From the sequence record PV775410.1: 45,137 nt of DNA; one strand, 5' to 3'. Under the pieces are notes generated by a model. It had not been told where the DNA came from and made no database searches. It was given only the letters and a program-made list of their open reading frames with translations. This DNA comes from Escherichia phage vB_Eco_Sem3. Both the position numbers and the translations under genes were made by a program. How positions within the stretch are numbered: the stretch's first letter is position 1; every line of letters begins with the position of its first letter. Positions 8,859 to 45,137 of this stretch are shown here, piece by piece.

Positions 8859-9821
8859 TTATGCTGTGATAATCTTAGCAGTCATCCGGCATTCTGGCAC
8901 TCCCTCTGAGAAAGTAACAATGTCACCGTCTACCTGATAAGCAAGTTTAGGTTGTAATAATCCATCAAGGTAGACCTCAATGTACTTAAATGCAGAGCCA
9001 ATCTGTACTACTTGTTGGCCTTCTGCTAAGTCAAAGTTCAACTCTAACTGAATATTAGGTTCAGATGTAGCCACACGACTACCAATCAGCACATACACCT
9101 CTGTACCCGCCACAAGCGGCTCTGCGAAAGTGATAGTGTTGTTGCTTATAGAGTATGCGCCTACAATTTGGTGCTGCAACACCCCATTAAGGAAAACTAG
9201 TGCATCTTGAAATTCATAAGGTGGTTTTACGGAAATCTCACCACCTTGGGCTATCGTGTACCAAGGAACAGTTCTGTGCGCAATACCAGAAGTCATACCA
9301 GCCTTAAGGCCAGCAATCTCAATGTCCTGTTTGGCGTTCCAATCTGTATGCTTCTTGTCGATGGCATCAAGCTGCCCTTTATTTACTGCATCTCCCGGAT
9401 TTGTGCCATCAGCCAAATCAGTAATCTTATTGCCGCCCCAGCTTACATCCTGTTTAATGAAGTATCCTTCTGGATAAAACCCGTCAAGTAACTCCTGTGT
9501 AATCTCCAGTATATGAATGAAAGAACCATTTAAAGACTTCATATCCAAGGTAACACCACGGTCAAACTCAGCGTATGGATACTCCTTTTGTACTTCCCTT
9601 CTAATACGGAACTTCAAACCTGCAACTGGTGCTACATCAAAAGTAATCTGGTGCGTGCCAGTTAGTTGCCAGCCAGATGTAACCTCAATCCAAGTGTTAC
9701 CTTGAAGAGACTCCACTATCACATCTGAGGCACGAAGATAACCTTTATCCCTACCAGCAAAGCTAAAGGGATAGGTTACTTGCGTACCGTTGGCTATATG
9801 TTCTGTGAAAGTATAACTCAT
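8859..9821 (-). CDS. Tail fiber / tailspike adaptor protein (T7 gp17 N-terminal domain-like)
   Basis: 320 aa; N-terminus MSYTFTEHIANGTQVTYPFSFAGRDKGYLRASDV…; too short to be a receptor-binding fibre, consistent with the adaptor that carries tailspikes in SP6/K1-5-type phages. Confidence 0.7.
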   Translation of the reverse strand: MSYTFTEHIANGTQVTYPFSFAGRDKGYLRASDVIVESLQGNTWIEVTSGWQLTGTHQITFDVAPVAGLKFRIRREVQKEYPYAEFDRGVTLDMKSLNGSFIHILEITQELLDGFYPEGYFIKQDVSWGGNKITDLADGTNPGDAVNKGQLDAIDKKHTDWNAKQDIEIAGLKAGMTSGIAHRTVPWYTIAQGGEISVKPPYEFQDALVFLNGVLQHQIVGAYSISNNTITFAEPLVAGTEVYVLIGSRVATSEPNIQLELNFDLAEGQQVVQIGSAFKYIEVYLDGLLQPKLAYQVDGDIVTFSEGVPECRMTAKIITA

Positions 9822-12121
9822 CAATCCTCCAGTTCATCTAAGCCATAACGCAATGCGTTCTGGATTCCTATTACATTAGCTAGAGGCACTAAGCGTAAAG
9901 CCCTACGTGCCACATCTACACCTTCTGTATCACCCTCTGCGTATTTAGTTATAGAATCTGCTAAACGATATGCATCTTGACCAACACCTACTAGTGGTAT
10001 TTGGTCTATCAAACCCTTAGTCTGAAAGCCAGCCTCATAACGGGATTGTACTAACTCAGAAGGTAGAACACCTAGGCCACCTAAGAAATCTCCACCTAGA
10101 CTAAATACAGCAGTTGTACTCATCATACCCATTGCACCAAAGGCCAACCCTTTAGGCGATAACTTCTCTTCCAAATATTCATCTTGGTCTTCTCGACCAA
10201 TAGAGTTCACATAGGCTTTTGCCGCATACACTATTGAACCCAAAGCAAAACCATAAGCTGTCTTCTTAGCAAGACCAATTTTATCGTGGCGAATCCCTCG
10301 ACCAAATTGCTTCTCACCAGATACAAGAGAGAATGACTTAAGCTGTGCAAATGTCTTACCTAGTGCTTTGTTCATCCAGATACCTTCATCACCAATGAAA
10401 TTACGTTGGATAATTAGACCTGACTTACGACGAATAGCATTAGCTAAAGTTTCACCCATGGCATAAGGCATTGTATCAAAGCCAAGCAAGCCAGAACCTT
10501 TAGAGTTAGCATCATAGTGCTTCTGTAGGTTAGTCATGAACTCCTGAGTAAGACCAAGTTCCTCCAGTTTCTTCTGAGGAATAATCTTCTTGCCTTCAAG
10601 GTGGTCAATGAAAGACAAAGCTATTTGCCTATTGGTCATTCGCTCCAGAGAACCCTGTGCCATGCGGAAGAGGGATAGGTTTGTCTGAGCACGTCGTATA
10701 GAGTTCATGGACTGGTCAAAATGGGCCATCATACCTCGCACTGTGGTTACATCACCAAACTCATCGGGACGCGCACCCTTAGTTGTCAGCCAGTTGTCTT
10801 CACCAATGTAACCTACCATTCGCTCAACCTCAGCTAAATTCTTATCTCGAAAGAAGCCATCGCCATTACGCAACGCCTTAGAGGTGAAGCGGAATTGCTT
10901 ACCTAAAGCCATAGTGGTGGCAGCAATACCAAACTCACCCATGAAGTTAGCAAGTTCACCTAGCTGTGCGAAGCCCATCTGACCTAAGCGAAGTACACCT
11001 GTAATGTCACGCCCACGACGCAGCATTTTAGTAGACAAATCTTGTGGGTTTGAATCGATAGATTTACCCATAATCAAGCGAAGCCCTTCTCGCATCTGAC
11101 GGATTTCTTCATCAATAGCCAGACCAGCTGCTTCATCTTTCTCTTTCAATTTAAGTCGCTTCTTTAACTCTTCAATCTTCTCTTGTGCCTTCTTGTAATC
11201 AGGCTCTGATTGACGGATCTTAGCCGACTCCGCTTCAAATTGTGCGTGTGCTTTTGTATCTTTAGCTGCATTTCGTGCATTTCGCTCTACAAGATCAATT
11301 GCATTAAGTGCAGCCTGATAGGTAGAGAAACCTTGACGAGCCAAGGCAGCACCACCTGCCGCTTCCTTCATGTAGTTATCTGTTAACTCTTCCACGTTAG
11401 TGTTCATAAAGTCACGCATACGAATGCCATTGTACTCTTGAGTAACATCTAAGCCTAAACTCATCTTAGCTCGGTTAGAGATATTATCTCTGGTTTCTTT
11501 ATTATCCAGAGCTTCTACCATCTTTTCAATCTCTTCATCACTAAAGCCTGCTTTGCGCATTAGTGCTTCATATTCTGCTTTGGTTTGACCAGACATAGCC
11601 TTTTCAAAGCTAAGCTGTCCGGTCAGGGTGGCATCAGCAACGCGGTTTACTTGTGCTCGTGCAATATCATCAGCCACTTCCTTTGGAACCTTACGAGAAC
11701 CATTCTGGTATGCACGAGAGAATAACTCAATGATGTCCTCTTTATCGTGCATACTGAATTGACGACGAGCCTTCATACTATCAAAAATATCAGGCATGTA
11801 CTTATCATCTGCTTTAACCTTTTCAAACCCAGATTCACCAGAGCGTTGACGTAATGCTAATGCTTCACGATACATAGCTTGCTGCCCCTCTGCTGCCATA
11901 CGGATAGACTTAGGCGTAGACTCATCCATACCGATGCGTACAGCTTCCCATACCTTCTCATTATATTGCTGCACATAGTGAGAGTTAGTATGACCTGCAA
12001 CCGGGTTGATATTATTCTCTTTGAGCCATAAATCGAACCCATCATTGAAACGATTCATATCAGCAGATTTCAGACGGTTCAAGTTAGTATTCTGCATGAG
12101 ACTAGCAGATGCTTTCTGCAT
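9821..12121 (-). CDS. Internal virion (ejectosome/core) protein, 766 aa
   Basis: Large protein in the T7 gp15/gp16 position; assigned by synteny and size. Confidence 0.6.
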   Translation of the reverse strand: MQKASASLMQNTNLNRLKSADMNRFNDGFDLWLKENNINPVAGHTNSHYVQQYNEKVWEAVRIGMDESTPKSIRMAAEGQQAMYREALALRQRSGESGFEKVKADDKYMPDIFDSMKARRQFSMHDKEDIIELFSRAYQNGSRKVPKEVADDIARAQVNRVADATLTGQLSFEKAMSGQTKAEYEALMRKAGFSDEEIEKMVEALDNKETRDNISNRAKMSLGLDVTQEYNGIRMRDFMNTNVEELTDNYMKEAAGGAALARQGFSTYQAALNAIDLVERNARNAAKDTKAHAQFEAESAKIRQSEPDYKKAQEKIEELKKRLKLKEKDEAAGLAIDEEIRQMREGLRLIMGKSIDSNPQDLSTKMLRRGRDITGVLRLGQMGFAQLGELANFMGEFGIAATTMALGKQFRFTSKALRNGDGFFRDKNLAEVERMVGYIGEDNWLTTKGARPDEFGDVTTVRGMMAHFDQSMNSIRRAQTNLSLFRMAQGSLERMTNRQIALSFIDHLEGKKIIPQKKLEELGLTQEFMTNLQKHYDANSKGSGLLGFDTMPYAMGETLANAIRRKSGLIIQRNFIGDEGIWMNKALGKTFAQLKSFSLVSGEKQFGRGIRHDKIGLAKKTAYGFALGSIVYAAKAYVNSIGREDQDEYLEEKLSPKGLAFGAMGMMSTTAVFSLGGDFLGGLGVLPSELVQSRYEAGFQTKGLIDQIPLVGVGQDAYRLADSITKYAEGDTEGVDVARRALRLVPLANVIGIQNALRYGLDELED

Positions 12122-12123
12122 AC

Positions 12124-13128
12124 CTAAGCCTTGGGGGACTCAAACAGGCGAGCACCAAGGCCGCGTACACTTGCATCCTGAGAGGAATGTACGACAGTAC
12201 CAAGGGCAGACAGAGTTCCGGCCCAGCGGCGAGGGGCCATATCAATTGCATTACCTTCCCGCTGTAGGGTTTTCAGCAAATCTTCACCTTTGCTAGAGAT
12301 ATCAAATGCACCCTCAGTGAGTACCTCTTCACCCTTAACACGCATCGCACCGATACTATCATCAGCAACAGCACGCACATAGCGGTCCCCTGCGTCTGCA
12401 CTGCGCACAATACTCGCAGCCCTGTCATCTCCTTGCTCACTGAGCTTAGTGGCCCTACCACGCGCTACAGCTCCAATAACGCCACCCATAGCCATACCGG
12501 AGCCTAGTGCTACCATAATGTCATCTAAATCACGAGTCATGTCACCTTGGACCAATATGGATTCAATAGCGGCATTACTTACGCCAGCGGCGATAGCGCC
12601 ACGCACAGCACGGCCTACGAGTCCAACTTTAGCGGCACCACCGGTTGGAATAGAGGCAACCCATCCCACAGGGTCAAGCACAGCAGCGCCAATCGTCGCC
12701 ACAGAGCCAACCCAGCCAGCCTGAGCAATGCGCTTATTGCGCTCAAGGTCTTCATCAGCATTCTGAATACGGAAGTTCAATTCATCCTCAGAACGAACAC
12801 CCTCAGTGATTGTCTGCATCATATCTGTACCATATTTGAAACGTAGTGCTTCACGTTGCTCAGGTTGTATCTCGAAGTCTGGTTGAGGTGTGAAATCAGC
12901 AGTGGCACGGTCATACCACCGCTTGCCTCCAAATGCCAACCACTCATTCTGGAAGGCAGCACCTACAGCACCTAAGATATCAGCATCAGCTTTAGCTTCA
13001 AGAACTTGCTCTTGTAACTCATTACGCTGGCGTATCGTAGGAGCCGATACCGGAGCCGCCTCAATAGAAAACGGCTCAGGAGTAGACTGGACATATCCAG
13101 CCCAATTAGTCTTAATGTCTTGTTCCAT
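12124..13128 (-). CDS. Internal virion protein, 334 aa (Ala/Gly-rich hydrophobic core)
   Basis: RBS GGAGGAA; may be the N-terminal part of a split gp16-like protein together with 9821-12121. Confidence 0.5.
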   Translation of the reverse strand: MEQDIKTNWAGYVQSTPEPFSIEAAPVSAPTIRQRNELQEQVLEAKADADILGAVGAAFQNEWLAFGGKRWYDRATADFTPQPDFEIQPEQREALRFKYGTDMMQTITEGVRSEDELNFRIQNADEDLERNKRIAQAGWVGSVATIGAAVLDPVGWVASIPTGGAAKVGLVGRAVRGAIAAGVSNAAIESILVQGDMTRDLDDIMVALGSGMAMGGVIGAVARGRATKLSEQGDDRAASIVRSADAGDRYVRAVADDSIGAMRVKGEEVLTEGAFDISSKGEDLLKTLQREGNAIDMAPRRWAGTLSALGTVVHSSQDASVRGLGARLFESPKA

Positions 13129-13192: not shown

Positions 13193-16141
13193 CTACAACT
13201 TAAATTTACCTACCTTAGAACCTTTAGCTAGCTTGGTAGGTGCAGCCTCATAAACTTGATACCAACCATTCGCGCCAATACGTTTATGAGTCCATGCCGA
13301 GACAGAGCCTGCTGGCATAGGTCCACCAAACCTAACCCACATGGAGCCATCTTCACGAGTCTCCACTTCGGTAATCTTAGGCACACCACCAGCAGATGCC
13401 ATATTGTATGCCTCAGCGCGTCGCTTCAGTAGACCAGGGATACGCTTACCTTCACTTGATGCAGTGCCCAGCATTTCGATAAAGCCTTCCGTAAGCTTAC
13501 CAGCTTTGAATGCAGCAAGAGCACGCGGTGAGTTCTGGATTCCACCTTTACCTAAATTGTAGGTTAAATCCATCAAGCCACGTTGCTGTGCAGGATGCAT
13601 CTGGTCAAACGGAATCTTCCAGTCACGAGTAGGAGGCACATGCTTCTTGGCATCTTGCTCCATAAGAGCGCGAGCCTTGCTCTCTGTAAGCTGAGACATA
13701 GACCCTCGATAGGGAACTAGTTCATCACCAATCTTAATATACCCGTTTCGCTTCTCTTCTTCCGTTAAGAAATGACCGTAACCGATAGACTCACCGCGAG
13801 CGTCTTTATATGGAGTAAAGGTTCCAGTTGCTCTATTAAAGCCAACTTTGTCTTTATTCTCATCCATAGCTAGCTTGTCATAGAATTGTTGCATATTACC
13901 TCGATAGTTAATCTCGAAGTTAGAAGGCAGATTCTCACCAGAAGCAAAAGCTGAAGACATGAGGAAGTTAGCTAGTCCAAATTTACCAATATCTTTGGCA
14001 GTTGGTTTAGCTGGCATAGGCTCTTGTACACCAATATCTGTACGATACGGGTGAACATACTCGCCTTTATCTCGTTCCTCTACTTTCTTCTGATAGGCAG
14101 AATCTAGTAGTGAAGTAGTATCTAAAGAGGTTACAGGGATTACTCCAGAAAGAGGGCGACCTGCTGCACCAGCACGAATCACAAAAGTTCCTTTCTGTTC
14201 ATTGTAATCAATGTATATATCATCTTTAGTTTCCCACTCTTGAAGCTCCTTCTTCAATTCTGGCATCTGTGTTTCTACATACCTACCAAGCGCCAGAGGT
14301 ACATCGGTAGGGTTTACGCCTTTCCCAACTGACATAAGCATATCAGATGCAGAAGTGTAATCACCTTTAATGAAATAGCCACCGGAAGTCTTTGCATCCT
14401 CTGTTTGAGTGTAGCGTTTATTGCCCCAAGTAATTAAAGCCTTCTTGATAGAATCCATGTTACGCATACCACTAGACCACAACATATTGGCCTTAGCTCG
14501 TAACTCTTCTTCCGCAATAGCTTTACCTAAGTCTGACACTTCGGTTTTACCATCAAACCAGCCAGCACCAGATACCTCATCCAGTGCATCTCCAATAGCT
14601 GAGTTGAACTTCTTGGTTTCCTTCTCAGTACGAGAGAATTTCTGCTGTGCTTCACGCGCAAACCTTGCAGCCTGCAAGGGTGTCTCTCCCATTTGTAGTG
14701 CAGTGTTGTAGTTATCCATGTAGCCATTCACCGTGTCACCAAAGACACCTCGGCTCTCTTCTGGTAACTGTTCCCACAACTGGCGAATAGTCATCAACTC
14801 CTGTGGTTCGCCCTTGGCAAAGTGCTCAGGCGATAGCATAGATTCCATGGCTTTGATACGAGACTCAAAGGTATCATCCACTAAGCCTTTGGAGTTCATG
14901 AATTGCAGGCGCTGCACTTCCACTGCACCACGAATAGCTTCAGCCTCTTGACTGTAAGGGTCCAAGCCACGTTGTTTGATTTGCTGGTCTGCATAAAGTT
15001 GGCTATCCTGTTTGATAACATCAATGTAAGCCTTCTTCTCTTTATCAGTCTTACCTTGGAAGCCAGTAAGGCGGTCGGAGTAAAGCTCACGTCGCATATC
15101 CTGCATTGCACCTAGCTCTGCATTCTGCTTAGCCCGTTGGCGCATCAGTGCCTCTAGCTCTGGATTAGAGAAGACAGAGTTACCTGTCAGATTATTAATG
15201 TGCTGTGCTCGTTCCAACAATTCTTCATCAGTTAAATCACCTGCAAGGTAGGATTCTTTAACTTCGAAAGACATACGAGTTACATCAGCTACATTATTCC
15301 TAGCCCAAACTGCATTACCACTAGTGATGGCTGTGATAAGCTGTGGATTCTTAGCATAAACAGAAACACCCTTATCGTCCTTCACATACTTCAGGGCTTC
15401 AGCCATGCTAACATCACCGCCTTGTGCAAGTGAAATTGCTCGCTGGACTAACTTCTTGTGCATCTGTTCAGGTAGTAACCCTTGAGTAAGACCTTCGCGG
15501 ATTCGTTCCTGTAAAGCATAGCCAGAGGCTTCAGGGTCAATATTAGAATCCCAAGTAGAAGCCACTCGCCCGTCAAAGGTATCCTCACGGTCTGCTTGTT
15601 CACGGTCAAGTTTATGCTGGGTTCGTGTAGCCCAAATCTGAGGCTGCTGTTCTTGGAAGACATTAGTGACCATACGCATAGTATCTTTGTCACCTTGCAA
15701 CTCAGGGTATTGCTGGAACAGCTTATTCTGCATCTCATTACGAGAGTCAACCATAAGTTGTGTCCACTCGTCATCCGTTCCTTGGAAACGAGTAGCCATG
15801 TCTTTCATTCGTGCTGCTTCATCATTAGCTAGCAGTTGAGCTTTGACAAGCATGTTAGCACGAGCGCCACCACGAGTTGCATCCTCAGAAGGCATTAATC
15901 CGTTATATGCCCGTTCCATTTGAACAACCTTATCTTCCTCAATCTTTTGATTAAGGATACCAGTGGTTACATCAGCTACACTACTGGCTGCTCGAATAAG
16001 GTCTTCGATAAATCGACTACCGGAGGTAGAAGCTACGCCAGCCTCCACACCTCCAACTCGCTGAGGTGCAAAGGTCATGACATTAGGGGAAGTGGCCTGC
16101 ACTTGTGGCAGACCTTGTACTGCTTGTCGCTCAATTGCCAT
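13193..16141 (-). CDS. Internal virion protein with lysozyme-like peptidoglycan hydrolase domain, 982 aa
   Basis: C-terminal region (…GYGHFLTEEEKRNGYIKIGDEL…LTESKARALMEQD…GLMDLTYNLGKGG…) looks like a phage lysozyme fold; TAATG overlap with the upstream gene. Confidence 0.6.
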   Translation of the reverse strand: MAIERQAVQGLPQVQATSPNVMTFAPQRVGGVEAGVASTSGSRFIEDLIRAASSVADVTTGILNQKIEEDKVVQMERAYNGLMPSEDATRGGARANMLVKAQLLANDEAARMKDMATRFQGTDDEWTQLMVDSRNEMQNKLFQQYPELQGDKDTMRMVTNVFQEQQPQIWATRTQHKLDREQADREDTFDGRVASTWDSNIDPEASGYALQERIREGLTQGLLPEQMHKKLVQRAISLAQGGDVSMAEALKYVKDDKGVSVYAKNPQLITAITSGNAVWARNNVADVTRMSFEVKESYLAGDLTDEELLERAQHINNLTGNSVFSNPELEALMRQRAKQNAELGAMQDMRRELYSDRLTGFQGKTDKEKKAYIDVIKQDSQLYADQQIKQRGLDPYSQEAEAIRGAVEVQRLQFMNSKGLVDDTFESRIKAMESMLSPEHFAKGEPQELMTIRQLWEQLPEESRGVFGDTVNGYMDNYNTALQMGETPLQAARFAREAQQKFSRTEKETKKFNSAIGDALDEVSGAGWFDGKTEVSDLGKAIAEEELRAKANMLWSSGMRNMDSIKKALITWGNKRYTQTEDAKTSGGYFIKGDYTSASDMLMSVGKGVNPTDVPLALGRYVETQMPELKKELQEWETKDDIYIDYNEQKGTFVIRAGAAGRPLSGVIPVTSLDTTSLLDSAYQKKVEERDKGEYVHPYRTDIGVQEPMPAKPTAKDIGKFGLANFLMSSAFASGENLPSNFEINYRGNMQQFYDKLAMDENKDKVGFNRATGTFTPYKDARGESIGYGHFLTEEEKRNGYIKIGDELVPYRGSMSQLTESKARALMEQDAKKHVPPTRDWKIPFDQMHPAQQRGLMDLTYNLGKGGIQNSPRALAAFKAGKLTEGFIEMLGTASSEGKRIPGLLKRRAEAYNMASAGGVPKITEVETREDGSMWVRFGGPMPAGSVSAWTHKRIGANGWYQVYEAAPTKLAKGSKVGKFKL

Positions 16142-16861
16142 TAAATACCTCTTGTTCCAGATGAATATGTACGAGAATCAGTTAAAGCTTTACCTAAAGC
16201 CATGCCGGACTTACTACCTGTTACATAGGCAGATGCCAGACTCGGTATACCTTGCACCAAGGTGCTCACGGCAGAAGGCTTCTTAAACTCACGCATCTGC
16301 ATCTGTCCACCTCGCTGGATAGATTTAAGCTGATTGGTGAAGTTAATCTTCTGATTCTCATAGTTATCAATAATTGTACTCTGGTTCCTCCCGCCCTCTG
16401 CTGCTAAGTCATTCAGCATAGAAGATACAGAGTTACCACCAGTACCAGTAGCACCTGCTAGTAATGCAACCTGTGCTCGCTGCTGTAGTAGTGAAGCCTG
16501 ATTGCTTATTGCATCTGCATGATATTGTTTAGCAGCAGAACGCTCTGCATCTGCTACTGTTTTGTATGCTTCTTGTGTAGCAATAAGTTGCTGCCGCCAC
16601 TGTTCTTCTTGTGCTTTCTTCATTGCCTTGGCTTCATCACTTCCACCAAAGAGATCACCAATCAAGCCTAAACCTTGAAGGCCAGCACCAAGAAGCCCAG
16701 CATTAGAGAAGCCAGCAGTAGAGCCGCTTAGGAAGCCACCTAGAGAACCTAGCAAGCCTCCGCCACCTGCGGCAGCACCTCCAGCAGCGGCTGCTGCAGC
16801 TGCCTGTAAACATACTACCAATAGAAGACATACCAGCCATAACGGCAGAACCTATAGCCAT
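16141..16861 (-). CDS. Internal virion protein A-like (Gly/Ala-rich), with an apparent frame discontinuity near the 5' end
   Basis: Strong RBS AAAAGGAGGG plus ATG at 16861 (TAATG-coupled to tail tubular B) opens a frame that turns Cys/Arg/Trp-rich after about 20 codons; the long Gly/Ala-rich ORF (16141-16821) is in the +1 frame and has only a TTG start with no RBS. Confidence 0.5.
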
Positions 16862-31830: not shown

Positions 31831-34380
31831 TCAGTGTGTTTCCTTCCAGCTTGCGCCAATCTTATATTCTCCTGCCATCGGGCAACGCATCTTCAGATAC
31901 TGCCCTGCCCAAGTCATGGCGTCGGCAATGATATGACCTGCACGGTGATAGCGGCGCTGGCAATGCAATACACCAGCATCAGCATCAACGCTAACGAGGT
32001 TTGCAGCAGACCACATACGTCCTTCAGAATCCACATGAATACGTTTCTCCTCTGCATCGAAAACTGCTTTCACAGCAGCCTTCTCTGTTTCGAACCCATC
32101 TAAGGTGAAAGGTAGGTCGTAGTTAAGATACAAGACCTCCTCTTCAGGAACTTCCATCTGGATTTCATCATGCACGTTAGCCACACCACAAGGATTTCCC
32201 ATAGCATCCAAAGCTACACCTTCCTTGCGCATTACTGCAAATGCCTTGACTAATGCATATTTCATACACAAAGAGCCAGTCATCTGGAGTAATACGTTAA
32301 GCATCGTGTGCTCTTTAAGTTCACCACCAGACATGCGGATGCGACCCCAATGCCCATCAGGTGCTTGCAGGTAGCCAAACTTGTTACCTTGTGCGATAAC
32401 ATTCTCACGAAGACGTGCAAGAGACGGTAGTTCAATCTCGAATCTTGCCACAACTTCCTTCATTTCTTCCTCAGTAACACCGCAGACTGCTGCAAGGTTG
32501 GCTATACCAGAACCATAGAGGAAGGCGTATATAAACGTCTTCGCCATATCACGCTTAGGAAGACCAGCCTTCATCTGGTTATGCGTATGAATATCACCGT
32601 GCAGTACAATCTCTTGGTACTCAGGGTCATTCATGAAGTGAGACAGGACACGCAGTTCAAGACCTGCACCGTCACAACCAAGAATTAGCTTGCCTTTCCC
32701 TGCTATGAATAAATCACGTAAAGGATACAAGCCACGGGCAGGAATATTAACCACGTTACGATGACGCATACGGAACGTAGAAGTGCCAATACTAATAGCA
32801 ACAGCTGGAACACGCCACTCTCCGTCATCTTTGTCAGACGTAGGCCAACATCCGTACCTCTCGTAGTATTGCTGCGCATTGATTCCTAGCTCCTTGTTGA
32901 ATGCTACAGGTACAAGGCCGCGACACTTTCGTACACCAGCCTGCGAGGGCCACGTTCCCTTCTCGTTGAAGGCTTCAACGTCACCACGGTTGAGTATCTG
33001 ACCACGACGGGATACGAGTATGTACCATGCAGCGATACCCAAGCACCAATCAGGGACTGTTTTACCTTCACGTGCGGCTCTTTCTTGCCATAAAGTGAGA
33101 GACTTTTCATTTATCTTACCACTCCAAGGTTTTGGTAACACTCCGTGCTCATCGAGATGAGCTTGCTCGGTATCGTTAAATTCAACACCTTTCCATCCAT
33201 ACTCATAGAGCACTTGCTTAACTGTATCCCTGTTACCCAAGGGAATCTCTTCGAAAGTAACAGGCGAGTAAGCGCCAATCCACTTGATGCTTGGCGTGTC
33301 ATTACGGTTTCCTCTAAGGTGAGGAAAGTCTTTCTTGACACTAGCCGACCAATCACCAGACTTAGTAGTGACACTCCATACTGTCTTGCGATCTCCTCGT
33401 CTCTCGGCATGAAGAAAGTGTGAGGGGTCAAGGACAGTAGGTATATTGTTGCTAGCTCCATACTCATTTGCGCGTTGGCATACTTCATTCTTTTCTTCCG
33501 GTTTAAAAGGTTTAGACTTGATACGCATAGGCATGTGAGGGCGGAACGCTGCGACTGTCTCATCAATCTTAGCGTCCAATTCTTCGCATCGGGCCAAAGC
33601 CTTGTCTATGTCCAGACGGAACCCGCGCTCGGCCTGACGGCTCATCTCCAGCGCCACAATGGACTCCATGTGGAAGGCTGTCTCAATGCCTAGGCCCGTG
33701 CGTTTATTCACGCCACGGCGTTTGTGCTCCATCCATTCCCCGTTAAAGAGCCAGAGGAACAAGTCACGACCAATCGCCACGTCCTCACGTACACGGTGAA
33801 CCATGTGGTCAGTTAGTTTAGACCAGTCCTCGTTCTCCGGTTTATAGCGACCTATACGGATGCCGTGCGCCTCAATTGAGTGAGGGGCGACGTTACCCAT
33901 ACCTTTGGCATATGCTTGCGGAGGAAGGCGTCTATCGGGGTTTAACAGGCGACTCATCACCAGCGTATCGACCACCTTAATGGGACACAAGTCTGCCCTT
34001 AAGCTGCCTTTGCCACGACGCTGGGTATAATTATACCCTTTCCAGATATCTGGAAATGCTTTCTCTAAAGCTAAACCATCATAGCCTAAGAAGTTTTGAG
34101 AAACGATAGCATCCGCATGATATAGGAAATTAACACCATCTTCCAGAGTACCATCTTGATGTCCTTCCCATTCAACTAAATGCTCTCTTGCAGAAGGATC
34201 TCTATTCTCAAATGAGTTAAAGAAAAGAAACTCTTCGGTAGTTAGTAGATCTACGCAGCAGATAATATGGACATCGTGATTACCTTTACCATAACGTATA
34301 GCGTCTAACAAACCTTTCGCTTCCAAATCCATAACTAGGATTCTGCCTTTAGCGGCCTCTTTCCAATTAATACCTTTCAT
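31831..34380 (-). CDS. DNA polymerase (family A, with 3'-5' exonuclease domain)
   Basis: 849 aa; N-terminal exonuclease-like region (…VMDLEAKGL…) and C-terminal polymerase motifs (…LHGDIHTHNQ…, …KTFIYAFLYGSG…, …VANVHDEIQMEV…); T7-like position. Confidence 0.9.
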   Translation of the reverse strand: MKGINWKEAAKGRILVMDLEAKGLLDAIRYGKGNHDVHIICCVDLLTTEEFLFFNSFENRDPSAREHLVEWEGHQDGTLEDGVNFLYHADAIVSQNFLGYDGLALEKAFPDIWKGYNYTQRRGKGSLRADLCPIKVVDTLVMSRLLNPDRRLPPQAYAKGMGNVAPHSIEAHGIRIGRYKPENEDWSKLTDHMVHRVREDVAIGRDLFLWLFNGEWMEHKRRGVNKRTGLGIETAFHMESIVALEMSRQAERGFRLDIDKALARCEELDAKIDETVAAFRPHMPMRIKSKPFKPEEKNEVCQRANEYGASNNIPTVLDPSHFLHAERRGDRKTVWSVTTKSGDWSASVKKDFPHLRGNRNDTPSIKWIGAYSPVTFEEIPLGNRDTVKQVLYEYGWKGVEFNDTEQAHLDEHGVLPKPWSGKINEKSLTLWQERAAREGKTVPDWCLGIAAWYILVSRRGQILNRGDVEAFNEKGTWPSQAGVRKCRGLVPVAFNKELGINAQQYYERYGCWPTSDKDDGEWRVPAVAISIGTSTFRMRHRNVVNIPARGLYPLRDLFIAGKGKLILGCDGAGLELRVLSHFMNDPEYQEIVLHGDIHTHNQMKAGLPKRDMAKTFIYAFLYGSGIANLAAVCGVTEEEMKEVVARFEIELPSLARLRENVIAQGNKFGYLQAPDGHWGRIRMSGGELKEHTMLNVLLQMTGSLCMKYALVKAFAVMRKEGVALDAMGNPCGVANVHDEIQMEVPEEEVLYLNYDLPFTLDGFETEKAAVKAVFDAEEKRIHVDSEGRMWSAANLVSVDADAGVLHCQRRYHRAGHIIADAMTWAGQYLKMRCPMAGEYKIGASWKETH

Positions 34381-34852
34381 ATCTAGACCAACCTTTGTGA
34401 GATTTGAAATTCCGCCAACCTTTATACACCTTACTCATAGAATTAAGGTTGAGGTTGTTTTCTTTGCAGAATTTAGACAAGTTAAATACTTCTACTCGTT
34501 CTCCTTCTGGATTACAGAATATGTAGGATTTAGCACAAGCAGCTTCGTGTCTCTCTTTAGAATGCGCAGTGTTACCTAACCTATCAGTCCATTCTAAATT
34601 ATCTTCATGACAGTTAGCTCTGTCATAATCTTTATGGTTGACTTCTGGTAAATTAAGAGGGTTCGGTATGAAATTCTCTGCCACCAAGCGGTGCAATTTC
34701 CTATGCTTTCCTGCAATATTCATTATCCGATAACCATCTTTGTCAAGATAACCTACAAGGAATCTGTTTGTTATCGTGCTAAAGATACGACCATCGGAAT
34801 AGAGGATGTAGTTAGTAAAAATCCTCGTACATTTGATCTGTTTCGAACTCAT
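34367..34852 (-). CDS. HNH homing endonuclease (161 aa) abutting the DNA polymerase start
   Basis: Start at MSSKQIK (RBS AGGAGGGAGG); …LPEVNHKDYDRANCHEDNLEW… HNH motif; 3' end overlaps the DNAP start by 14 nt. Confidence 0.75.
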   Translation of the reverse strand: MSSKQIKCTRIFTNYILYSDGRIFSTITNRFLVGYLDKDGYRIMNIAGKHRKLHRLVAENFIPNPLNLPEVNHKDYDRANCHEDNLEWTDRLGNTAHSKERHEAACAKSYIFCNPEGERVEVFNLSKFCKENNLNLNSMSKVYKGWRNFKSHKGWSRYERY

Positions 34853-34953
34853 CCTCCCTCCTTTCTGGTTTAGGTTGCATTGAATCTTGGAAATCCCAAT
34901 CAGAATCATAATCACGTGGCATAATGCACCTCCAATCAACATGATAAAAGGCT

Positions 34954-34969
34954 GTCTCACACGTGAGAC
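34954..34969. repeat. Palindromic hairpin element GTCTCACACGTGAGAC (copy 3)
   Basis: Read directly; followed on the transcribed strand by CCTTTTAT. Confidence 0.75.
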
Positions 34970-44787: not shown

Positions 44788-45137
44788 ACACGTCAGGCTT
44801 GTGAGTGGAGCGCTAGCGAAACGAACAGATAGCCCACGCCCTCCCACCCTGTCAAACGCTCAGGAATGGCCCTGAATAGCCTCAGGAATGCACTAAGCGG
44901 CTTCACTAAGGCAATCACCTTGTCCACCACTAAGCCATCCCTAGGCCGTCCTAGGCGCTCTCCAGCGTTCCACCTTGCTAGTACATGAGCAAAGACTAGG
45001 CTGTACCAGCTAACTAGTACGGCCTGCCCTTGTGTACTACTAAGCTAGTACAAGGAGTACATCAGCCCTGCCCCGTCGAAGACGGATTTCCTCAGGCCAC
45101 CCTATGGGGGCAACCCGGCGAGGGCGAGGAAGCAGAG

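Follow-up and report, generated by a model that had tools for sequence, protein, structure and literature searches.

Single-base homopolymer undercall as the probable cause of the split gp16-like gene in the deposited genome of Escherichia phage vB_Eco_Sem3

The gene for the largest internal virion protein of Escherichia phage vB_Eco_Sem3 is deposited in two pieces, and the split is very likely a homopolymer undercall artefact and not biology. The window, that is, the whole stretch of DNA analyzed here, comprises 45,137 nt of sequence record PV775410.1. In it, an N-terminal fragment ORF of 334 aa with an ATG start (positions 12124..13128) carries residues 1-332 of the intact protein, followed by a frameshifted K and A and then by TAG, and a C-terminal fragment ORF of 766 aa, also with an ATG start (9821..12121), carries residues 337-1102. 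Both lie on the minus strand, a detail absent from the preliminary description. They meet at a TAG-GT-ATG junction (12119..12126, minus strand; TAG at 12126-12124, GT at 12123-12122 and ATG at 12121-12119), where the coding strand reads ...GAG TCC CCC AAG GCT TAG gt ATG CAG... The preliminary description of two adjacent ORFs in different frames, separated by TAG-GT-ATG and summing to about 1100 aa, is thus confirmed from the sequence; 334 + 766 gives 1100 aa, compared with 1102 aa for the single gene of relatives.

Both ORFs match the same family profile, phrog_342 (1235 positions). The 334-aa ORF covers positions 162-495 (E 3e-62) and the 766-aa ORF covers positions 504-1227 (E 5e-174), and these back-to-back matches indicate that the adjacency of the two ORFs is not due to chance. 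In the same profile, T7 gp16 covers positions 4-1227 and the intact K1E-type protein covers 162-1227 in one stretch. By sequence similarity, the two ORFs are one gene, the Vectrevirus (K1E-like) gp36, a homolog of T7 gp16. That the pair forms the halves of one gp16-like ejectosome protein, as had been proposed, is borne out by the colinear profile matches and by the 1102-aa ORF obtained when one C is restored. Members of the family are one large polypeptide of about 1060-1340 aa; the deposited gene (334 + 766 aa) does not show this trait and regains it at 1102 aa with the added C. We attribute the departure from the family's single polypeptide to sequencing error and not to the phage.

The lesion is a run of five C on the coding strand (G5 on the plus strand) at 12133..12137, minus strand, where relatives have C6 (alignments to Sem4, KMB14 and K1E). 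The C5 run sits 9-14 nt before the TAG, and in the alignments C5 versus C6 is the sole difference from intact relatives at the junction. Relatives read GAG TCC CCC CAA GGC TTA GGT ATG (E S P Q G L G M) at the run, and the stretch of the intact protein that spans the junction is LFESPQGLGMQK. A read-level check had previously been suggested at the stop/start itself, 12115-12130, although a sequencing artefact had not been foreseen; the alignments locate the lesion instead in the homopolymer, as a 1-nt deletion at 12133-12137. Insertion of one C at the run yields a 1102-aa ORF that is identical to KMB14 gp36 at 1098 of 1102 residues and to K1E gp36 at 1080 of 1102. In tblastn searches, the 334-aa ORF matches amino acids 1-333 of KMB14 gp36 with 98.5% identity, and amino acids 332-1102 match Sem3 with 100% identity in another frame. 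Because the 771 amino acids past the lesion are 100% identical to KMB14, there is no decay downstream of the break. The ATG of the 766-aa ORF corresponds in the intact gene to an internal codon, Met337. The site is also the single longest G/C homopolymer of the genome: in KMB14, C6 at gp36 is the only G/C homopolymer of at least 6 nt, and Sem3 has none of that length.

These observations are most likely explained by the following chain of events. A one-base undercall of C6 as C5 in the deposited sequence would shift the frame, the shifted frame would expose the out-of-frame TAG, and the internal Met codon would mimic a new start. The undercall would have arisen in a nanopore-only Flye 2.8 assembly at about 25x for which polishing is unmentioned, the Sem3 reads presumably having miscalled the run, and the real phage should carry C6 and encode a single protein of 1102 aa.

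A genuine ancestral arrangement of two genes, each with its own ribosome-binding site, was also considered. There are indeed two clean ATG-initiated ORFs, and the Sem1 record annotates gp36 as two CDS. In GenBank, however, the exact C6 context occurs in 25 records, in each of which gp36 is a single gene, and the exact C5 context was restricted to Sem1 and Sem2. The 24 non-Sem relatives that share the local sequence have gp36 as one ORF, as do all relatives compared. The same layout in related phages, which the preliminary description had singled out as the observation against an interrupted gene, was therefore not seen. With a 121-aa peptide across the junction as query, 153 records matched, and the alignment was unbroken in 60 of the 60 matches listed. 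A search with the 766-aa ORF as query returned near-complete homolog cluster representatives of 1061-1338 aa each and no stand-alone protein of about 766 aa. One homopolymer base separates the two-gene arrangement from the relatives, and distant homologs do not retain its putative start, Met337. The break falls in an RGLGxRLxExxQG motif; across 21 homologs, down to 22% identity, G334 of this motif never varies and conservation of Q333 is 90% or higher. In IMG/VR, the C5 context had no match and the C6 context had one; neither context was found in JGI metagenome contigs. A genuine two-gene arrangement is refuted by this comparative census, and we give it practically no weight. A nonsense mutation is likewise ruled out, since in intact relatives the TAG triplet does not lie in the reading frame, and it is the 1-nt deletion upstream that exposes it. 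Of the three options raised earlier (two genes, frameshift or nonsense interruption), only the frameshift thus holds, in the form of a 1-nt deletion.

The sister assemblies point to the source of this deletion. The Sem phages were sequenced with nanopore reads and assembled with Flye v2.8, at coverages of 120, 12, 25 and 17x for Sem1 to Sem4, and the text of the paper mentions neither Illumina, short reads nor polishing (PMC13005862). The deposited Sem3 is near-identical to Sem1 (2 substitutions and 6 indel events) and to Sem4 (8 substitutions and 16 indel events), and the three are one genome, differing mostly by 1-2-nt indels. These indels break essential genes at differing places record by record: in Sem4 the capsid gene is in three pieces, gp12 in three and the portal gene in two, and in Sem1 the RNA polymerase and primase/helicase genes are split. 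Sem3 itself has a private 2-nt deletion in its gp14 gene at about 16798/16799, which truncates the product after 52 codons. Sem1, Sem4, KMB14 and a Logan contig that is identical in all else do not have this deletion, and it is demonstrably a second indel error in the Sem3 assembly. At the gp36 site, C5 recurs in Sem1 and Sem2, two sister assemblies made from nanopore reads by the Sem3 laboratory, and Sem4 has C6; three of the four Sem assemblies thus have C5, Sem1 at 120x among them. This recurrence in several assemblies suggests that the undercall is systematic rather than random. Sem3 combines a 1-nt deletion in a homopolymer, as judged against accurately sequenced relatives, an assembly from long reads only, and other indel errors together with discordant calls at the site.

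Earlier work on T7-like phages describes homopolymer frameshifts in assemblies built from long reads alone, with single genes annotated in several parts as a result (PMC10438801). An example is the przondovirus Toyotomi, whose DNA polymerase gene was annotated in three pieces owing to a homopolymer artefact (Elek et al. 2023, PMC10438801). That type of case and Sem3 share Nanopore/Flye assembly, a T7-like podophage, a 1-nt homopolymer indel and a gene annotated in pieces, as well as unmatched non-phage DNA beside the terminal repeat; Sem3 differs from Toyotomi in having no short-read or Sanger data behind the correction. The split has little biological weight, and its main import concerns data quality. 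In the Sem1-4 records (PV717788, PV775410, PV775411 and PV775413), nanopore indels were left uncorrected; they interrupt structural and replication genes, raise the number of annotated CDS and give a spurious "diversity" within essentially one phage, and automated scans will go on flagging such splits. In an assembly from long reads only, a 1-nt difference that breaks the frame at the longest homopolymer should be compared with relatives and replicate assemblies before it is interpreted.

Alternatively, the C5 call could reflect a real C6 to C5 deletion by replication slippage, with the 334-aa and 766-aa pieces made by stop-restart at TAG-GT-ATG and co-assembled in the virion core; we regard this as improbable. 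A Logan k-mer assembly of run SRR24791465 also has C5 and is otherwise a clean consensus of the Sem phage, with the other genes intact over 26.6 kb. C5 thus prevails among the calls of at least one read set, and its majority both there and in the 120x Sem1 favors a real deletion; a majority C5 call fits systematic basecalling bias and would also fit a real allele. The Sem phages form plaques and lyse cultures (PMC13005862). The junction geometry is favorable as well, with AAGG, a Shine-Dalgarno-like sequence, 7 nt upstream of the ATG of the 766-aa ORF and the TAG stop 2 nt away, as judged from known bacterial translational coupling. In an AlphaFold2 model of the intact protein (mean pLDDT 49, used for local loop/helix context only), residues 331-339 are predicted, with low confidence, as a loop that links helix 319-329 to helix 342-356. 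Given this loop position, the AAGG and the stop 2 nt off, a real split could conceivably be expressed. If true, this would be the first case of this essential ejection protein being naturally divided, and the point of division would mark a scission-tolerant domain boundary; tolerance of scission at residue ~333 by the large ejectosome protein would be useful for domain dissection. By equal logic, however, the broken capsid, portal and RNA polymerase genes of the sisters and the broken gp14 would also have to be real, which is untenable for viable phages. Moreover, Sem4, the same genome, carries C6, the break costs conserved residues (the invariant G334 and Q333), and the split is found in none of the 24 independent GenBank genomes and in no homolog cluster representative.

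The only other C5 was found in Logan contig SRR23278741_4319, from a strain that is 2.5% divergent and has its other genes intact in the 15.7 kb examined; its local haplotype is distinct, with differences on either side of the run, 96 nt upstream and 28 nt downstream. Three sibling runs, SRR23278738, SRR23278739 and SRR23278741, contain the same strain, with no substitution over 18 kb, and differ only by 1-nt lengths at four G/C homopolymers, the gp36 site included. The gp36 run is C6 in SRR23278739 and C5 in SRR23278738 and SRR23278741, and the restored protein of the SRR23278741 strain is found exactly in its sibling SRR23278739. At all four toggling homopolymers, the longer allele gives an intact ORF or the ORF length of a relative. 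This toggling of C5 along with other homopolymer lengths argues against a real deletion. An independent, natural and recurrent C5 allele, considered on the basis of SRR23278741_4319, was dropped because the siblings toggle between C5 and C6 and differ only in G/C homopolymer lengths. Literature searches on the SRA accessions did not find the sequencing platform of SRR24791465 or of the SRR2327873x runs, and the Sem paper lists neither an SRA nor a BioProject accession.

It might also be supposed that C5 is real and that the full length is restored either by a -1 P-site slip of tRNA-Pro on C CCC or by polymerase stuttering on the run. The slip (UCC CCC AAG to UCC CCC CAA) would regenerate the wild-type ...ESPQGLGM..., and -1 frameshifting is established for gene 10 of T7-like phages. 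The zero frame, GAG UCC CCC AAG GCU UAG, however, has no X XXY YYZ heptamer, which leaves a single-tRNA slip as the one possible event, and the codon in the A site, AAG, is not a stop codon or a rare one. Downstream RNA structure is lacking, with -19.8 kcal/mol for the 106 nt spanning the site (z = 0.05 vs 200 shuffles). In K1E, TCT CCG CAA encodes the same residues with no run of C, and the run is thus not a conserved frameshift signal; relatives read in a single frame across the site and need no frameshift. Runs known to support transcriptional slippage are much longer, C5 being far below their lengths. Such restoration is highly improbable, and a programmed -1 frameshift is rejected for want of heptamer, RNA structure and conservation.

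With the undercall corrected, gp36 is the largest internal virion protein of the Sem3 phage and a routine gp16 homolog of the K1E/SP6 type. T7 gp16 is packaged in the capsid core, is ejected, and helps to form the DNA-translocating channel; by homology, Sem3 gp36 would likewise be packaged in the core and ejected to a trans-envelope channel. A phmmer search against PDB sequences (E<=0.01) gave one weak match, to a chain named gp10 (E 4e-5), and none to a gp16-named chain. Gly/Ala-rich hydrophobic segments lie in the 334-aa piece. T7 gp16 (NP_042004.1, internal virion protein D) has an N-terminal lytic transglycosylase domain, whereas the K1E-type protein is without it. This domain is also absent from Sem3, where profile positions 1-161 are uncovered and the 334-aa and 766-aa products gave no Pfam match. 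The intact K1E-type and Klebsiella-phage homologs tested likewise start well inside phrog_342, so the missing transglycosylase part is not peculiar to Sem3. In the K1E type, a phage-lysozyme domain is found instead at the C-terminal end of the gp15-like 982-aa protein. In Sem3 this protein is gp35, the upstream neighbor (13193..16141, minus strand; phrog_4290), with PF00959 at residues 776-910.

The gene neighborhood is also conserved. K1E gp36 (YP_425014.1, "putative internal virion protein") and its Vectrevirus orthologs, for example, that of vB-Eco-KMB14 (WPK27904.1), occupy the same locus between gp35 and gp37; these are single CDS of 3309 nt, whereas the Sem3 gene as deposited is interrupted after residue 332. 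The downstream neighbor, gp37 (8859..9824, minus strand), is a tail-fibre/adaptor gene with a T7 gp17-like N-terminal domain (PF03906), and the gene for a gp14-like internal virion protein is located at 16141..16861 (minus strand; PF24072). T7 gp16 shares with the Sem3 gene both phrog_342 and the gp14-gp15-gp16-gp17 order. The full minus-strand order, gp12-gp14-gp15-gp16-gp17, is represented in Sem3 by the PF25675 nozzle, PF24072 (T7_gp14), the 982-aa protein, the split gene and PF03906.

The genes of the window lie on the minus strand, where ORF calling places an ORF of 334 aa at 12124..13128 and one of 766 aa at 9821..12121, with the coding strand reading GAG TCC CCC AAG GCT TAG gt ATG CAG across the 2 nt between them. 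The reading TAG gt ATG puts the two ORFs in different frames, and the adjacent pair noticed in the preliminary description is thus confirmed. In a PHROG profile search, the two products match phrog_342 ("internal virion protein with endolysin domain", 1235 positions) colinearly, at positions 162-495 and 504-1227, respectively, and the intact K1E-type protein, gp36, aligns to positions 162-1227 without a break. T7 gp16 spans the whole profile and carries an N-terminal transglycosylase domain, whereas the window's gp16-like protein lacks it (positions 1-161 absent), a lack shared by the tested intact K1E-type homologs. Several GenBank records label gp36 "peptidoglycan lytic exotransglycosylase" despite the absent transglycosylase part.

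In an alignment with the Vectrevirus relatives K1E and KMB14 and the three closest records, the relatives read GAG TCC CCC CAA GGC TTA GGT ATG (E S P Q G L G M) at the junction, and the sole relevant difference is one C fewer in the window, where the coding-strand run at 12133-12137 is C5 (G5 on the plus strand) rather than C6. With this C missing, the shift exposes an out-of-frame triplet, the TAG, and the ATG that looks like a start encodes Met337. Of the "frameshift or nonsense interruption" considered earlier, therefore, the frameshift stands and the nonsense mutation does not, the TAG being out of frame in the relatives. Adding one C restores an uninterrupted ORF of 1102 aa, identical to KMB14 gp36 at 1098 of 1102 residues and to K1E gp36 at 1080; this and the colinear profile matches bear out the proposal that the ORFs are halves of one gp16-like ejectosome protein. 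Beyond the lesion, all 771 residues match KMB14 (100% identity, other frame) and so show no sign of decay. The gene itself is an ordinary K1E gp36/T7 gp16 family member. Apart from the gp36 C6, the 44.6-kb KMB14 genome has no G/C homopolymer of six or more, and a scan of the whole window found no such run. The split was correctly observed but is very probably artefactual, in an ordinary gp16-like ejectosome gene: loss of a C at the genome's only C6 run in an unpolished nanopore assembly would divide gp36 into two ORFs.

A genuine two-gene arrangement, the other possibility raised earlier, finds no counterpart among relatives. K1E, KMB14 and the remaining non-Sem records shown carry a single annotated gene at this locus, which in the fetched K1E and KMB14 records is one 3309-nt CDS of 1102 aa. 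Among GenBank phage records, a 45-nt probe able to seed only on the C5 allele matches only the sister phages Sem1 and Sem2, and a C6 probe matches 25, with a single gene in all. A 121-aa junction-spanning peptide matches 153 records across Molineuxvirinae and is aligned unbroken in 60 of the 60 listed in even steps through the ranking. When the 766-aa fragment was searched against 5.8 billion proteins, the near-complete ones among 42 cluster representatives were all 1061-1338 aa, and no stand-alone protein of ~766 aa was among the 42. The two-gene arrangement was accordingly rejected. The junction lies within a conserved motif, RGLGxRLxExxQG, with R322, E330 and G334 invariant and conservation of at least 90% at Q333; no conservation of Met337 is seen in distant homologs.

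It is conceivable that C5 is real and that the split gp36 is expressed by stop-restart coupling, as only 2 nt separate the stop from the ATG, which is preceded by an AAGG 7 nt upstream, and AlphaFold2 places a loop at residues 331-339 between two helices (a low-confidence model, mean pLDDT 49); however, the split would lose conserved residues, and both the C6 in Sem4 and the census of relatives contradict it. Full-length gp36 could also arise from C5 by a -1 P-site slip on C CCC, which would regenerate the wild-type sequence, but the site has neither a heptamer nor RNA structure (z = 0.05) and is not conserved, K1E having no C run at this position. Even taken together, the three alternatives (a real split that is tolerated, correction at the level of expression, and a two-gene arrangement of ancestral origin) are improbable.

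The closest records, Sem1 (100%), Sem4 (99.9%) and Sem2 (99.9%), come from a single laboratory. The Sem phages were assembled from nanopore reads with Flye v2.8 at mean coverages of 120x (Sem1), 12x (Sem2), 25x (Sem3) and 17x (Sem4), and the paper mentions neither Illumina data nor polishing (PMC13005862). Whole-genome comparisons gave 2 substitutions and 6 indel events between the window and Sem1, and 8 and 16 between the window and Sem4, with most of the indels in short homopolymers or CT repeats; they show these records to be one genome with differences mainly in indels. Essential genes are broken at different places in each record: in Sem4, the major capsid gene and gp12 are in three pieces and portal, scaffold and gp14 in two each; in Sem1, RNA polymerase and primase/helicase are split. 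The gp36 C5 is common to the window, Sem1 and Sem2, the last with an extra T about 500 nt beyond the run; Sem4 has C6, but a base is missing about 500 nt further on. When all 54 KMB14 proteins were projected onto the window, exactly two genes were frame-broken, gp36 and gp14. In gp14, a 2-nt deletion (GG on the coding strand) at 16798/16799 brings a stop after 52 codons instead of 240 from the ATG at 16861; the two bases are present in Sem1, Sem4, KMB14 and an otherwise identical contig, SRR24791465_1, from Logan, an independent k-mer assembly of SRA runs. Because it is private to the window, this deletion, 4.7 kb from the gp36 site, is certainly an assembly error. It lies outside any long homopolymer.

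A 301-bp exact direct terminal repeat (115-415 and 44829-45129) is flanked by 114 nt on the left (1-114), which match no phage record and are unaligned to Sem1, Sem4 and KMB14, and by 8 nt on the right (45130-45137), unaligned in the comparison with those three genomes; both flanks probably stem from adapter, barcode or chimeric read ends that were left untrimmed in the nanopore assembly. Long-read-only assemblies of T7-like przondoviruses show the same error class, with a polymerase divided among three annotations, and residual adapter or barcode DNA next to terminal repeats (PMC10438801), resembling the window's unmatched 114 nt adjoining its repeat. The four Sem phages were described as isolates obtained independently in Istanbul and Adana, on E. 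coli and on Klebsiella aerogenes (PMC13005862). With 0-8 substitutions in 45 kb, they amount essentially to a single genome, and the public 2023 run SRR24791465 has the same sequence (0 substitutions over 26.6 kb), which suggests a common source or a single laboratory-resident phage. Indel error accounts for most of the "diversity" that is discussed for them (PMC13005862).

The 26.6-kb SRR24791465 contig is identical to the window except for its intact gp14, and to Sem1 bar one Sem1-private deletion, and its gp36 run is still C5. At least one read set thus has C5 as its majority call, which points to systematic bias or a real base and not to a random consensus slip. Another contig, SRR23278741_4319, from a strain 2.5% divergent, has C5 on a different local haplotype with every other gene intact in the 15.7 kb fetched. 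Its C6-restored gp36 protein has an exact match in the sibling run SRR23278739, and the contigs of SRR23278738, SRR23278739 and SRR23278741 represent one Vectrevirus strain: across 18 kb they show no substitutions and only four differences, all 1-nt changes in G/C homopolymer length. These affect the gp36 junction run (C6/C5), a run in a small ORF (G6/G5), one in the tailspike (C5/C4; the gene is in pieces of 428 and 212 aa in SRR23278739) and a second run in gp36 (C4/C3). The longer allele gives either the intact ORF or, for the small ORF, the length of the KMB14 homolog, which is the signature of homopolymer undercalling; an independent real C5 allele in SRR23278741_4319 is overturned by the C6 in SRR23278739, and the gp36 run is shown to toggle for technical reasons. 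The splits differ by run, affecting gp36 at two different sites and the tailspike. These sibling runs provide a helpful real-data example of homopolymer errors in Logan contigs. The related Vectrevirus contig ERR4561601_1727 has C6, but its gp35, gp36 and gp37 are frameshifted, each split in two; these look like another noisy-platform assembly, and such contigs therefore exist in Logan. It also has an HNH_3 ORF between holin and small terminase, an insertion that may be real.

Profile searches show that the canonical T7-like order is kept around gp36, all on the minus strand: nozzle protein gp12 (PF25675), gp14-like internal virion protein (16141..16861, PF24072), a gp15-like protein of 982 aa (13193-16141), gp36, and a tail-fibre/adaptor protein with a T7 gp17 N-domain. 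It is the gp15-like protein that bears, at its C-terminal end, the muralytic domain of the ejection apparatus, a phage lysozyme (PF00959, residues 776-910). The phage is a Vectrevirus (K1E-like, SP6-related), and a 3.6-kb region shows 95-100% identity to >60 phage records. Two small minus-strand ORFs, at 469-843 and 34367-34960, are annotated as HNH homing endonucleases in sister records, and both may be mobile insertions varying between Vectrevirus strains. The first has no KMB14 counterpart at that position, and one of the two lies directly upstream of the DNA polymerase gene, overlapping its start.
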